From: an uncultured Clostridia bacterium | GTDB lineage: Bacteria > Bacillota > Clostridia > UMGS1883 | Assembly: GCA_947629005.1 (NCBI GenBank) | Contig: CANRCD010000002.1 | Span: 307,671 to 371,670, forward strand | Length of the DNA: 64,000 nucleotides | Direction of reading: 5' to 3' | Shown here: one piece after another, positions 15,001-21,000 of the stretch | How positions within the stretch are numbered: the first letter of the stretch is position 1 | Layout of the letters: every line of letters begins with the position of its first letter | Position numbers: made by a program

Positions 15001-18000
15001 AATTTCGCGGCCAGCTCGGGAAAGCCCTCCTTCTCGGCGGTTTCGGCAAAGCCGGCGTACATATCCGTCCACTCGTAGTTTTCGCCGTCCGCCGCGGCGG
15101 CGAGGTTCTGCGGAGTTGTGCCTATGCCGCAAAGCTCCTTAAACCACATCTTGGCGTGTTCCTTCTCGTTGTCGGCGGTCTTAAGAAACAGGGCCGACAT
15201 CTGCTCGTAGCCCTCCTTCTTCGCCACCGAGGCGAAATAGGTGTACTTGTTCCTCGCCTGCGATTCGCCCGCAAACGCGGCCTCAAGGTTCTTTTCGGTC
15301 TGGGTACCGGCGTACTTGTTCTCTGCCATGATTTTTCTCTCCTTTATTTTTATTTTGCGAGGCGTTTATTCCTTCGCCAATTCCTTTTTTTGACATTCGG
15401 GGCACAGCCCCTCAAAAACCGTTCTGTGGCGCGTTATGCGAAAGCCCGTAGCCTCCTCGGTCAGTCGGTCGTACTCCTCCGTATAGGGCACAGGGGAGTC
15501 GCAGACCGCGCCGCAGCCCGTGCAGAAGGTGTGGTAATGCCTGTCGAGCCGGAAGTCGTACCTATCGGCCGAGGGCACCCGCACGTGGGAAATCTCTCCG
15601 CTCTCCGCCAGAAGGTTGAGATTGCGGTAAACCGTCCCACGGCTGATTTTTTCGTCCCTTTCGCGCACGTCCATATAGATTTCGTCAGCGGTCGGGTGAT
15701 TTTTGCGGGCCTTCACGGCCTCCTCAACGAGCTTGCGCTGGCGTGTGTTCCGCGTCTGTTTCATAGTCGTTCTCCCAAATAAAATCACTATTAGGACTTA
15801 ATATTATTATATATCTTTTTTGCTTGTTTGTCAAGCGAATTTAAAAAAATGCCTGCGCGGTTTTTTCATGTCCCGCCGCGGAGGCGGGCGCACGCGCCGC
15901 ATTGTGCTCGTCTCGGTCTGCTATGCCGCCGTCATATATGGCGCAAAGCGGGAATATTTTCACCGCTCGGGCATAAATTTATTATGAAATCAATAAAAGG
16001 AGCGGATAAAAATGAAGGCTTCGGCGGAAAAATCCGGCCCCGGTATAGGACGGTGCCTTATCAATCTGGTGACGGCCTACGCCGTGACGGTAGTTCTTGT
16101 CATGCTTTTTGCGCTGCTGCTCTGCTATACCGATATCGGCGAGGAGTGGGTCAGCCGCGGCGCGCGGATAATAACGCTGTTTTCCGTGGCGCTGGCGGGG
16201 GCGCTCTGCGCGGGCAGCGGGCGGCGCAGCGGCTGGCTGATAGGCGGTGTCAGCGGGGCGCTGTATATGTTGGTGCTCTATGCTCTTGGCTACATAATTT
16301 TCGGCGAGTTAGAGCTGAGCCTTGCCTCGGCGCTGAGGGTGCTCTACGGCCTCTTGGCAGGAGTGGTCGGCGGCATTATCGGCATAAATATGAAAAAATA
16401 GACGGTGGGTTTTGCCAAAAGCTATTGACAAAAGACAATTTTATGGTATAATTATGGTATAAAAGGAATAATAAAGGAGGCAAAACTATGAAGCACATCA
16501 AGACAATAGCCGGCGCCAATCTTCTTAAAACCGTTGGCAAGGGCGGCTGCGGCGAATGTCAGACATCCTGCCAGTCCGCCTGCAAAACGTCCTGCACTGT
16601 AGCCAACCAGAAGTGCGAGAAGAAGGAAAAGTAAACTTTGAACCGGGGCCGCAAATGTGGCGGCCCTTTTTCATTATTCTATAAGGGTGATTCTATGATA
16701 CATAAATTCAAAAATCTCGGTCAGTACCTCGTAGTGGACGTTGTCAGCGGGGCAATCCACTCGCTGGACGAAAAGGCTTACGACCTTCTGGACTGCTTTG
16801 ACGAGGACGGCGCCTTTGACGCCGCCGCTGCCGCTGAGCGCGGTTTTACCGGACCGGAATACGCCGAGGCAAGGGAGGAACTCGAGGCTCTTAAGGCCGG
16901 GGGGCTGCTTTTTTCAAAGGACGTATACGAGGATATTGCCAAGCGCTGGGACAAGCAGCCCGTGGTAAAGGCGCTGTGCCTGCATATCGCACACGACTGC
17001 AACCTTCGCTGCAAGTACTGCTTTGCCGGCGGAGGCGAGTATATGGGCAAGCGCGAGCTGATGAGCGCCGAGGTGGGGAAGAAGGCCATCGACTTTGTAA
17101 TAGAGCAGAGCGGCAGCCGCAGGAACATTGAGATCGACTACTTTGGCGGCGAGCCGCTTATGAACTTCGGCGTGGTTAAGGAGATAACCGAATACGCCAA
17201 GGAGCAGGGCCGCCTTCACGGCAAGGAGTTCCGCTTTACCATCACCACTAACGGCGTGCTGCTCGACGACGATAAGCAGGCATATATCAACGAAAACATG
17301 AGCAACACGGTGCTTTCGCTGGACGGCCGCAGGGAGGTGCACGACGCCGTGAGGAAGCGTGCGGACGGCAGCGGCAGCTACGACCGCGTGGCTCCCAAGT
17401 TTCAAAGGCTTGCCGAAAGCCGTAATCAGCAGAATTACTACGTCCGAGGCACCTTTACCCGCGATAATCTCGACTTCGCCCAGGACGTGAAGCACCTTAT
17501 CGGCCTCGGCTTTGAGCAGATAAGCGTGGAGCCTGTTGTGGCCGATGAAAAGGAACCCTACTCCATCCGGCGTGAGGACCTTCCCCGCATTTTTGCCGAA
17601 TACGACGCGCTGGCCGAACATCTGGTGAATCTTCGCAAAAGCGGCAAGTTTGTAAATTTCTTCCATTTTATGATAGACCTTGAACAGGGCCCCTGCGCCT
17701 ACAAGCGGCTTTCGGGCTGTGGTAGCGGCAACGAGTATCTTGCAGTCACTCCGAGCGGCGATCTTTATCCCTGCCACCAGTTCGTGGGCAAGCCGGAGTT
17801 TAAAATGGGCACTGTGTTCGAGGGAAAGCTCAACCCCGAGATACGCGAAATGTTCCGTAAAAGCAACGTCTACACCAAGGATGAATGCCGCCGGTGCTGG
17901 AACCGCTTCTATTGCAGCGGAGGCTGCGCGGCCAATGCCTTTAATATGAACGGAGACATAAATAAGCCCTACGATATAGCCTGCGAAATGCAGAAAAAGC

Positions 18001-21000
18001 GCACCGAGTGCGCCATCGCGATGGCGGCGGCTCTGGCTGAGGAGTAAGCCGCACCCAAAACATGAAAAAAATTGAAAATTTGGTATTGACTAATCGGAAT
18101 TTTTTATGTATAATAGCAATGTTGAGAACCAACAGATGAAATGAAGCAAGGAGGATAATAAATGAAAGCGAAAAACGTCATTTCATTTATACTGATAATG
18201 GTGCTCATTGCCGCGTTCGCAAGCGTATGCGCGTTTGACATCAAAATCGGTAACTTTGAAGTCCCCAGCGTTCTGGGCGATAAGGGAATCAAGAAGGGGC
18301 TCGACCTTGTGGGCGGCTCCATAATCGTGTTCGAGCCCGACGTTGACGAGAACACCAAGGTAACCAGCGAGGATATGGACGCGGCCGAAGCCGTTATCCG
18401 CGCAAGGCTCGATTCTCAGGGCAACACCGAGGCCACCATCACCCGTCAGGGCGAAAGGGGCCTGCGCGTTGAAATACCCAATATCGACGACCCGCAGGCC
18501 GCCGTTGACATGATCGGTCAGGTGGCCCTGCTTGAGTTCCTCGACGCCGACGGCGAGGTAATCATGGACGGCAGCCGCCAGTATGTGAGCGGCGCCACCA
18601 AGATGTACGGCAAGGTGAATGAGAACTCGAATCCCGAGCACTATGTTCAGCTTTCCTTCACCAAGGAAGGGCAGGAGGCCTTCGCAGCCGCCACGGCCAA
18701 GGCCGTGGCCGAGTCTGACGAGAGCCGCCGCATAATCTCCATTGCGCTTGACGGCGAAATTCAGATGAGTCCCACCGTTCGCGAAACTATCAACAGCGAG
18801 AGCTGCGTCATCACCGGCGGCTACGAGGCCGAGGACGCCGTGGCCGTTGCCAACCTCATTAACAGCGGTGCGCTGCCCTTCGCCCTAAAGGATGCCGAGC
18901 TGCGCAGCGTCGGCCCCACTCTGGGCTCTCAGGCGCTCTCCACTTCGCTTAAGGCCGCGCTTATCGGCGTTATTCTCGTAATGCTCTTTATGCTGTTCTT
19001 CTATAGGCTTCCCGGCCTTGTGGCCGATATCAGCCTTGTGGCCTATATCAGCGTGGTGCTCCTCATTATGGCCGGCTTCTTCATTGGCGACGGCGTTGAC
19101 AGCGGCTACCGCGTAACCCTTACGCTGCCCGGTATTGCAGGCGTCATCCTCTCGATAGGTATGGCCGTTGACGCCAACGTGGTTATCTTTGAAAGAATTA
19201 AGGACGAGCTCCGCCACGGCAAGAGTGTGGGCGCGGCTGTGGACGGCGGCTTTAAGCGCGCCATCACCGCTGTTATCGACTCCAATGTGACGACCATCAT
19301 CGCCTGCGTGGTGCTCTACTTCTTCGGCACCGGCACCATCAAAGGCTTCGCCATTACCCTTGGCATAGGCATTATCATTTCCATGCTTACGGCCATTTTC
19401 CTGACGAAGCTTCTGCTTAAGCTTATCGTGGGCTTCGGTGTCAAGAATACCATGCTCTACGGCGTAAACAAAAGGAGGGATGCCTAATGTTCAGCCCCTG
19501 CAACAATAAAAAGATATTCTTTACAATTTCCGGTATCCTTGTCGTACTCAGCATTGTGCTTTTCTTTGCGAAGGGCCTCAATCTCGGCATTGACTTCACC
19601 GGCGGCAACATCTTCCAGTTTGACATGGGCAAGGCTGTCACCGCTGATATGGAGGATACCCTTGAATCCCTTACCGCTGAGAAGATTGGTTCCACTGACG
19701 TAACAGTTCAGGCTACAGGCACAACTGAGGTCATTGTTAAGACTCCCGAGCTTGAGAACAGCGTCAGCGACCAGCTTATCGAGGCCGTAAAGAGTGAGTT
19801 TGGCCTTGAACAGTCCGCCGTTCTGAACAGCGAAAAGGTAAACGGCACCGTCAGCGGCCGTCTTATCGGCAACACGCTTATGGCCGTTATCATCGCCGTT
19901 GTGCTCATGCTTCTGTATATTACCATCCGCTTCGACTTCATGAGCGGTACCAGCGCCGTAGTGGCCCTGCTCCACGACATAATCATCATGTTTGGCTTCC
20001 AGTGCCTTCTCGGCGTAACGGTAAACACACCATTCATCGCCGCTGTGCTCACTATTTTGGGCTACTCTATTAACGCCACGATTATTGTGTTTGACCGTGT
20101 GCGTGAGAACAAGAAGCTCATGAAGGGCGCTTCTCCCGCCGAAATTGCCGACGCCGCCATCAAGAGCAGCTATACCAGAACCATCAATTCGTCGCTGACA
20201 ACGCTGTTCACTATTGGTGTGCTCTATATTATCGGCGTTACCTCCATCAAGGAATTTGCCCTGCCCATCATCGTGGGTATCATTTCGGGCACCTATTCGT
20301 CTCTGTTCATAGCCGGCCCCTTCTGGGCTTGGTGGAATAGCCTCGGAGCTAAGCCCGCGCAGAAGAAAAAGAAGTAATAAAACGCTCAATAAAATAATAA
20401 ACTGGCACTGTGAGAACAGTGCCGGTTTTTTATTGTAAAAACCGATAAAATCTGCGTGGCTGATTTTATCGGGAGAAGGAGGAGCGGCCTTGCGAGTCAA
20501 ATGGCGATTTTGGGAAATCGCTATTGACGATCCAAGGCACGCGACGTGGCGCTGTGAAAACAGTGCCGGTTTTTTGTCGGTGCGTTTGAGGAGAGGAGGC
20601 AGACAATGAAACAAATTTTACCGATACTCGCGGCGGGACTGCTCGCGGCCTGCTCGGTAACGGCGGGCAGCGGCAGCGTATCTCTCGACAACACCACCAA
20701 GGGCTGGGGCTTTCGCAAAATGTCTCCCCGCCCCGAGTTCACGGCGGAACAAACTGCCGAAATGCGGGAATACGGCTGCCTTTACATGGGCGCCGAGGGC
20801 GAAAAATCGCTTTACCTAACCTTTGACGAAGGCTATGAAAACGGCTATACGGCCCAGATACTCGACGTGCTTAAGGAAAAGAGTGTTCCGGCGGCCTTTT
20901 TCGTGACCGGCCCGTATTTGCGCGAGCAGCGCGAGCTCGTGGGCCGCATGCTTGCCGAGGGGCATATTGTGGGAAATCACAGCGTAAACCATCCGTCTCT

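Follow-up and report, generated by a model that had tools for sequence, protein, structure and literature searches.

The locus described here is most probably (we estimate about 85%) the scfA-scfB module of a spore-forming member of the Clostridia with ~55% G+C, encoding a SCIFF ranthipeptide precursor and its radical-SAM maturase, and operating by the mechanism of expression and crosslinking proposed below. It lies within a 64-kb stretch of DNA, called the window throughout (table 1), and both gene products score well above the cut-offs of curated family models: ScfA matches TIGR03973 with 81.4 bits (cut-off 50) and PF13165 with 83.8 bits (cut-off 27), in each case over its full length, while ScfB matches TIGR03974 with 694.6 bits (cut-off 425). 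A preliminary description of this DNA had proposed a 48-aa, six-Cys SCIFF precursor followed after 60 nt by a SPASM radical-SAM enzyme, and had suggested searches with TIGR03973 and TIGR03974; the open reading frames and these searches bear out both assignments. It had also regarded the family as already described, and rightly so, for the SCIFF gene pair is an ordinary, well-characterized and routinely annotated system that is carried by nearly every Clostridia genome. Since curated HMMs already name this module automatically, one more copy has little weight on its own, and the sole lead that we have kept from it is an apparent operon coupling to secDF. In a clostridial pangenome study (bioRxiv), no more than one such cluster per species was found across clostridial orders.

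For comparison we used 80 related loci; counts refer to 81 loci for the precursor core and secD, 79 for the scfA-scfB spacer, 75 for the promoter upstream of scfA, 63 for the upstream DUF3792 gene and 58 for yajC. The nearest reference genomes are uncultured Oscillospiraceae/Clostridia MAGs, with ScfB identities of 83-84% (L001 and L002), and the exact 48-aa peptide is also present on short ENA metagenome contigs.

Table 1. Features of the scfA-scfB locus and its neighbours, in window coordinates
Feature	Position	Strand	Basis
TIGR04086/DUF3792 small membrane-protein gene, 129 aa	16012..16401	+	TIGR04086, 78.6 bits (cut-off 30)
Predicted sigma-A/sigma-70-type scfA promoter, TTGACA-16 nt-TGgTATAAT (extended -10)	16425..16452	+	12/12 plus TG
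Perfect 11-bp tandem duplication, TTATGGTATAA x2, overlapping the -10 box	16441..16462	+	Read from sequence
scfA Shine-Dalgarno, AAAGGAGG	16473..16480	+	7 nt ahead of ATG, read from sequence
scfA, SCIFF ranthipeptide precursor	16488..16634	+	TIGR03973, PF13165, core match
Intrinsic-terminator-like hairpin and T5, candidate leaky terminator/attenuator	16645..16671	+	Stem energy, conservation
scfB Shine-Dalgarno-like, AAGGGTGA	16683..16690	+	4 nt ahead of ATG, read from sequence
scfB, radical-SAM/SPASM thioether-forming SCIFF maturase, 450 aa	16695..18047	+	TIGR03974, PF04055, PF13353, PF13186, CteB identity
Promoter-like site ahead of secD, TTGACT-17-TATAAT	18086..18114	+	11/12
secD	18162..19487	+	TIGR01129, 327.6 bits
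secF	19487..20377	+	TIGR00966, 278.9 bits

The precursor gene and its transcription signals

The translated product of scfA, MKHIKTIAGANLLKTVGKGGCGECQTSCQSACKTSCTVANQKCEKKEK, has Cys residues at positions 21, 24, 28, 32, 36 and 43, with a leader of about residues 1-20 followed by the core GGCGECQTSCQSACKTSCTVANQKCE. It thus shows the family pattern, six Cys over ~45 residues and the conserved GGCGECQTSCQSACKTSCTV core, and a core of the CGECQ[T/S]SCQSACKTSC type recurs in 79 of the 81 loci. A SCIFF gene is expected at no more than ~500 bp from a TIGR03974 radical-SAM gene (PMC5300114), and here the distance is 60 nt on the same strand. The omission of short SCIFF genes from annotation has been documented already (PMC5300114), and the ORF track supplied with the window omits short genes too; the claim that the precursor is unannotated holds for that track but not for public data, in which gene callers report the identical peptide with a precomputed PF13165 hit attached.

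The near-consensus, extended -10 promoter that had been noticed upstream of the precursor agrees with the consensus at every position, and its -10 box ends 35 nt ahead of the ATG. The 64-kb window contains just four perfect TTGACA-N16-18-TATAAT arrangements (0.00 expected in shuffled sequence), and in an alignment with the three closest relatives (L001-L003) both TTGACA and TGGTA are invariant. Across the wider set, 38 of 75 loci have a site scoring at least 10/12 in the 150 nt ahead of scfA, where 3.4 would be expected (~11-fold), and 37 of these 38 carry the TG of the extended -10. The tandem duplication overlapping the -10 box, which yields a second -10-like TATAAA, is a window-specific insertion that is absent from the closest relatives in the same alignment.

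Between the two genes, where a hairpin with a run of five T had likewise been reported, a stem of 8 pairs (7 of them G-C) closing a 7-nt loop spans positions 16645-16667; it begins 11 nt past the scfA stop codon, is directly followed by the T-run and leaves 29 nt to the ATG of scfB. Folding gives -16.1 kcal/mol for the stem alone and -21.9 kcal/mol for the 71-nt spacer (z = -2.4). The position of this element is conserved in relatives: of 79 spacers, 40 contain a strict terminator-like site (2.3 expected) and 78 a hairpin with a folding energy of at most -10 kcal/mol (35 expected; median z -4.6), and among the window, L001 and L002 the sequence of the stem varies with its structure kept. Judged by sequence comparison, the scfA promoter and the spacer hairpin are conserved features of the SCIFF family across the 80 related loci.

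These observations support the interpretation of the hairpin as a leaky terminator or attenuator, at which transcription would probably terminate in part. Promoter-like sites are not enriched in the scfA-scfB spacers of the related loci (2 against 4.5 expected for short spacers, 8 against 8.2 for long ones), so scfB probably relies on read-through of the hairpin. An Rfam scan of positions 15700-18300, with E values up to 1, matched no RNA family, and the hairpin is therefore not a described riboswitch or leader. The T-run after the stem is short, five T and then CATTATTC, which we count against the mechanism and which makes the efficiency of termination unreadable from the sequence; no published transcript mapping of SCIFF loci was found in the literature searched.

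The hairpin might instead act chiefly in RNA stability or processing, with a full scfA-scfB(-secDF) transcript being cleaved, the 3' end of scfA shielded from exonucleases and the excess of precursor arising through differential decay. Such an element would have an anatomy identical to that of a terminator, and the presence of a stable hairpin in all but one of the spacers, when the strict T-run rule is satisfied in so many fewer, would suit it; in the window, however, stem and T-run are directly adjacent, the arrangement of a canonical intrinsic terminator. We consider this alternative unlikely as the chief function, although the two mechanisms are compatible and would have the same outcome. 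It is very improbable, on the other hand, that the hairpin is a complete terminator separating two transcription units, with scfB expressed from a promoter of its own. The strength and G-C content of the stem ahead of a T-run would fit complete termination, and some related spacers, of up to 494 nt, could house a promoter, but the 29 nt between hairpin and ATG in the window contain no promoter-like site even at a threshold of 8/12, and such sites occur in the spacers at shuffle frequency, as opposed to their strong enrichment upstream of scfA.

Partial termination has a parallel in lantibiotic operons such as nisA-nisB: a stem-loop comes after the small precursor gene, which is highly expressed, and the biosynthetic genes are supplied by read-through. 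The order of precursor, hairpin and modification gene is alike in scfA-scfB, whereas the RiPP class and the enzymes differ. With a leaky terminator, a constitutive-looking sigma-A promoter would start transcription ~28 nt upstream of scfA, and the strong AAAGGAGG ribosome-binding site would ensure high translation of the precursor. Most transcripts would end at, or be stabilised by, the G+C-rich hairpin and its T-run, and the fraction reading through would constitute the sole mRNA for scfB, as the anatomy and conservation of the spacer suggest; since scfB is not followed by a terminator, secDF expression may draw on these transcripts as well. Promoter, precursor gene, hairpin and maturase gene follow one another in this order family-wide, an arrangement from which the peptide is predicted to be in large excess over its enzyme.

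The maturase and the predicted crosslink

Besides TIGR03974, ScfB matches PF04055 (52.7 bits), PF13353, PF13186 (25.9 bits) and TIGR04085 (72.1 bits). Its radical-SAM CX3CX2C motif is the CNLRCKYC of the preliminary description (C102, C106 and C109), and the Cys residues of its SPASM domain, C342, C360, C398, C401, C407, C411 and C430, fit the seven-Cys motif for two auxiliary clusters, CX9-15GX4C...CX2CX5CX3C...C, with the spacing C342-x12-G355-x4-C360, C398-x2-C401-x5-C407-x3-C411 and C430. We place the start of the gene at ATG 16695, exactly 60 nt past the scfA stop codon, and reject the TTG at 16638 that public gene callers use for a 469-aa ORF, because the resulting extension would be translated across the terminator hairpin and is unconserved in L001-L003, because the alignments with TIGR03974 and CteB both begin at MIHKF, and because the Shine-Dalgarno-like AAGGGTGA lies ahead of the ATG. 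That ScfB could be an orphan maturase of the NF040492 ('not_ScfB') type acting on another substrate, with the 48-aa ORF a relic, is scarcely credible, since its score with this exception model, high as it is (609.9 bits), stays well under the cut-off of 855 when TIGR03974 is passed comfortably, and an intact scfA with a strong Shine-Dalgarno sequence and an invariant core sits 60 nt upstream.

The closest characterized enzyme is CteB (PDB 5WGG/5WHY), which matures thermocellin in Clostridium (Acetivibrio) thermocellum; ScfB is 59% identical to it over residues 1-444 (E 2.9e-184), and every aligned Cys is conserved, those that bind the clusters included. In this alignment residues 1-90 of ScfB run gap-free along the N-terminal domain of CteB and are a candidate leader-binding (RRE-like) region. 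The precursors CteA and ScfA are of the same length class and share the numbering of the six Cys as well as Cys32, Thr34 and Thr37, all three of which are kept in the window, and ScfA has the same core, CGECQTSCQSACKTSCTVANQ, as the Acetivibrio locus L017; differences lie in the leader (residues 4-18) and in the C-terminal tail (KCEKKEK). Tte1186a and Tte1186 of Caldanaerobacter subterraneus, the first SCIFF system characterized in vitro, belong to the same family and have the same Cys32-Thr crosslink chemistry, a likeness that is taken from the literature only.

The N-terminal domain of ScfB would bind the leader of the precursor, and the [4Fe-4S] cluster held by C102, C106 and C109 would serve to cleave SAM reductively, so that hydrogen is abstracted from a side-chain carbon of a core Thr. 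This carbon would then be joined to a Cys thiol with the assistance of the two SPASM auxiliary clusters, the link predicted by homology to the CteB/CteA and Tte1186/Tte1186a pairs running from Cys32 to Thr34 or Thr37 via C-gamma. The chemistry and the proposed role of the product follow PMC8326336, PMC8102284 and PMC10114670. Published accounts differ as to which Thr, 37 or 34, is the acceptor, and as to modification of the remaining five Cys.

As to function, the statement that the role of SCIFF peptides remains unknown is partly outdated, for a quorum-sensing role has been proposed by Chen et al. (2020), as related in passages of PMC8102284 and PMC8326336. According to these passages, knock-outs had quorum-sensing and sporulation-gene phenotypes, in a single study of two solventogenic or acetogenic species, which possess the same two-gene module as found here. 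An intercellular or regulatory signal affecting sporulation and agr genes is the best-supported proposal for the SCIFF product in the literature; carrying it over to an Oscillospiraceae-like lineage is an extrapolation.

Neighbouring genes and secDF

The module had been placed between perR-rbr and secDF, outside any biosynthetic island. Its downstream neighbour is indeed secDF, but the gene immediately upstream encodes the TIGR04086/DUF3792 membrane protein, perR-rbr lying beyond it on the other strand; and although no biosynthetic island is present, a DUF3792 gene upstream and secDF downstream are the canonical context of SCIFF genes. Publicly, the identical 129-aa gene carries PF12670 DUF3792. 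In HMM scans, 35 of 63 related loci have it directly upstream of scfA in the same orientation; a tblastn count of 10 loci, with the window protein as query, was discarded after these scans raised the figure. The window has no terminator between the DUF3792 gene and the scfA promoter.

Nor is secDF a chance neighbour. In 60 of the 81 loci, spanning several clostridial families, secD follows shortly downstream of scfB on the same strand, which places scfA-scfB directly ahead of secDF; scfB and secD are separated by a median of 41 nt, with overlaps of 4 nt in some pairs, and just 4 of the 60 have a terminator-like site in between, none being found there in the window. In most loci sampled scfB is tightly and, as far as gene arrangement can indicate, apparently operonically joined to secDF. 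No mention of SCIFF together with SecD was found in the literature searched.

In E. coli, yajC and secDF form an operon. Among 58 loci, an iterated-HMM count finds yajC preceding the DUF3792 gene in 10, so that in this minority scfA-scfB stands between yajC and secDF; in the window, yajC was not detected. A universal yajC-DUF3792-scfA-scfB-secDF order, suggested by 8 of 10 loci in a hand-picked sample biased towards small ORFs, was rejected on the unbiased count.

Does this arrangement have functional meaning? Instead of being a free-standing natural-product locus, the SCIFF module may have a functional tie to the Sec accessory machinery, an idea we regard as a long shot. If it were true, the modified peptide could have its target in the membrane or at the translocon, or the cell could deliberately regulate expression of the peptide together with its capacity for secretion. 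Like the conserved layout of the locus, the link between scfB and secDF could be useful in work on the function of SCIFF peptides, and it offers a testable hypothesis on their site of action. The spacing varies in one group of relatives: in Acetivibrio-type loci (L015, L017 and L018) ~900 nt separate scfB from the start of the secD match downstream, whereas in the window secD follows directly.

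The SCIFF precursor and its radical-SAM maturase

The genes scfA and scfB of the window constitute a standard member of an already known family, which is curated and has been characterized both structurally and biochemically, and they lie in its usual genomic setting (see table). The encoded precursor ScfA, with its six cysteines at positions 21, 24, 28, 32, 36 and 43, matches in full length both models for SCIFF precursors, TIGR03973 (81.4 bits, cut-off 50) and PF13165 (83.8 bits, cut-off 27); AAAGGAGG stands 7 nt ahead of its ATG. The maturase ScfB, with the Pfam domains Radical_SAM, Fer4_12 and SPASM, scores 694.6 bits against TIGR03974 (cut-off 425) and 609.9 bits against NF040492, the exception model for ScfB-related orphans, under the cut-off of 855 of the latter. 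Both identities proposed in the preliminary description thus passed the profile checks, and none of the tested defining features of the two families failed. Its coordinates for the two genes, the CNLRCKYC motif, the spacing, the promoter and the hairpin were also right, so the observation is confirmed and its interpretation supported. The precursor is unannotated in the supplied ORF track only: NCBI, ENA and Logan already contain the exact 48-aa peptide, together with its PF13165 match, and one member of its 90% cluster bears the name 'six-cysteine peptide SCIFF'.

Features of the SCIFF locus and its surroundings
Feature	Position	Strand	Remarks
Sporulation genes	13204-14689, 20606-21367, 21598-22773	+	called by profile scores
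Rubrerythrin gene	14787-15329	-	behind the promoter at 15806-15834
Fur/PerR-family regulator gene	15366-15788	-	behind the promoter at 15806-15834
Promoter TTGACA-17-TATAAT	15806-15834	-	perfect match
TIGR04086/DUF3792 gene	16012-16401	+	small membrane protein; directly upstream of scfA
scfA promoter TTGACA-16-TGgTATAAT	16425-16452	+	perfect match; extended -10 TG
scfA	16488-16634	+	48 codons; product MKHIKTIAGANLLKTVGKGGCGECQTSCQSACKTSCTVANQKCEKKEK
Hairpin GGGGCCGC-AAATGTG-GCGGCCCT, then T-run	scfA-scfB spacer	+	begins 11 nt past the scfA stop; ends 29 nt ahead of the scfB ATG
scfB	16695-18047	+	450 codons; ATG exactly 60 nt past the scfA stop; contains CNLRCKYC

A search of solved structures aligned residues 1-444 of ScfB with CteB, the maturase of C. 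thermocellum (5WGG/5WHY), at 59% identity (E 2.9e-184). The CX3CX2C triad (C102, C106, C109) is conserved between the two proteins, as are all the cysteines of the SPASM domain (C342-x12-G-x4-C360; C398-x2-C401-x5-C407-x3-C411; C430). Public gene calls place the start of scfB at TTG 16638, 4 nt past the scfA stop, yielding a protein of 469 aa, which is why the 450-aa form has no exact database entry. This earlier start was rejected: the extension crosses the terminator hairpin and is unconserved in the three nearest relatives. Since the alignments with TIGR03974 and CteB, moreover, both begin at MIHKF, the start of scfB is taken to be the ATG at 16695.

The SCIFF family goes back to the bioinformatic definition by Haft and Basu (2011), as cited in PMC8326336, and its wide distribution in Clostridia argues against an antibiotic role (PMC8326336). 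CteB and Tte1186, the maturase of Caldanaerobacter subterraneus, each form one thioether from Cys32 to a Thr, the acceptor being reported first as the C-alpha of Thr37, later as a C-gamma link, and as Thr34 in E. coli co-expression (PMC8326336). Disruption of the genes in C. beijerinckii lowered the expression of sporulation genes while raising that of agr, and a role in quorum sensing has been suggested (Chen et al. 2020, as summarized in PMC8102284 and PMC8326336). A pangenome preprint describes conserved ranthipeptide clusters across clostridial orders, with at most one per species. To this background our analysis adds the family-wide conservation of the predicted promoter and hairpin, statistics for a putative read-through into scfB, and the joining of the locus to secDF and the DUF3792 gene.

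Promoter and hairpin across the family

Scanning for ScfB in one genome per species returned at least 540 loci, and 80 were fetched; all locus fractions reported here derive from these 80 best-scoring loci, a sample that is rich in Lachnospiraceae and without phylogenetic weighting. The closest relatives of the window locus are uncultured Clostridia and Oscillospiraceae MAGs, with 83-84% identity, and the representatives scanned thus do not include the species of the window itself. A core of the type CGECQ[T/S]SCQSACKTSC is found in 79 of the 81 loci that include the window, the other two having ScfB at the extreme edge of a contig.

The 64 kb holds four perfect consensus promoters, vs none in 100 shuffles, and one of them precedes scfA. 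Of 75 loci, 38 have a promoter-like site of at least 10/12 in the 150 nt ahead of scfA, against 3.4 expected, and 37 of these 38 sites have the extended -10 TG; the distance from the end of the -10 box to the scfA ATG has a median of 39 nt across them and is 35 nt in the window. This enrichment, together with the invariance of TTGACA and TGGTA in the alignment of the window with its three closest loci, identifies the predicted scfA promoter as a conserved feature of the family. In the window its -10 box is overlapped by a perfect 11-bp tandem duplication (two copies of TTATGGTATAA, 16441-16462). The three closest relatives lack this duplication, by which a second -10-like element, TATAAA, arises 11 nt or one helical turn downstream.

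The stem of the hairpin between scfA and scfB has on its own a folding energy of -16.1 kcal/mol, and no Rfam family matches the region. Strict terminator-like sites are present in this spacer in 40 of 79 loci, vs 2.3 expected from shuffles, and a local hairpin of -10 kcal/mol or lower in 78 of 79, vs 35 expected (median z -4.6); between the window and its two nearest relatives the stem sequences diverge while the structure is kept. Like the promoter, therefore, the predicted hairpin is conserved across the family. Promoter-like sites show no enrichment in the same spacer, whether short (2 vs 4.5 expected) or long (8 vs 8.2). Taken together, the lack of such enrichment and the conserved hairpin make read-through the simplest reading of how scfB would be expressed, with the hairpin, described previously as an internal attenuator, acting via termination or 3'-end protection. 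Read-through expression of scfB, as judged from these comparisons, now has statistical support.

Association with secDF and DUF3792

In 60 of the 81 loci, within the best-scoring, Lachnospiraceae-rich sample unweighted by phylogeny, secD follows scfB shortly downstream on the same strand. The gap has a median of 41 nt (range -4 to 832) and is below 100 nt in 39 of the 60; a terminator-like site occurs in this spacer in only four of the 60. In the window the gap (18047-18162) is 114 nt, with an 11/12 promoter-like site and no terminator-like site found. The position of secDF next to scfB is not incidental, and the arrangement suggests that scfB, secD and secF may be co-transcribed across many Clostridia. 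On the other side of the locus, 35 of 63 loci have the DUF3792 gene immediately ahead of scfA, and it is preceded by yajC in only 10 of 58, a count that replaces the higher frequency obtained with an earlier hand-picked sample. In E. coli, yajC and secDF form one operon; the SCIFF genes stand immediately ahead of secDF in the 60 loci, and between yajC and secDF in the minority bearing yajC. The 64-kb window has no yajC detectable with tblastn or with an HMM made from YajC proteins of related loci; in its lineage, the upstream flank of the SCIFF locus has been rearranged.

This tight joining of the SCIFF module to secDF and the DUF3792 membrane protein is the only unconventional lead of the analysis. 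No paper in the literature searched brings SCIFF and SecD together and, by titles and abstracts, none combining SCIFF with 'translocase' is about a clostridial SCIFF locus. Inherited gene order or simple co-regulation seems to us the likelier explanation of the association, and a functional link with secretion unlikely.

The wider neighbourhood

The preliminary description had set the pair between perR-rbr and secDF; the direct upstream neighbour is instead the DUF3792 gene, and the perR-like and rubrerythrin genes lie beyond it on the opposite strand. These two genes adjoin the SCIFF locus in the window only, and in none of the 80 related loci. Because the regulator scores under every NCBIfam equivalog cut-off (best PerR 93 bits vs 200), the name perR holds only at the level of the family.

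The organism is very probably a spore-forming member of Clostridia, since the window carries spoIIAB (183 bits, above cut-off) with a spoIIAA-like gene and a SigF/SigG-family sigma factor under the equivalog cut-offs, a pdaA-like deacetylase just under its cut-off (279.5 bits vs 298), and the SpoIVB peptidase above cut-off. The G+C content of the window is 55%.

About 4 kb upstream of the SCIFF locus there is a gene for 5'-methylthioadenosine/S-adenosylhomocysteine nucleosidase (11840-12526, + strand; NF004079, 227.9 bits). Such nucleosidases also remove 5'-deoxyadenosine, which radical-SAM enzymes release as a by-product; that the gene lies so near is probably a coincidence. The remaining two perfect consensus promoters of the window stand back to back, one (52808-52836, - strand) facing an ORF of 764 aa (50498-52792, -) and the other (52901-52929, + strand) an ORF of 1892 aa (52918-58596, +).
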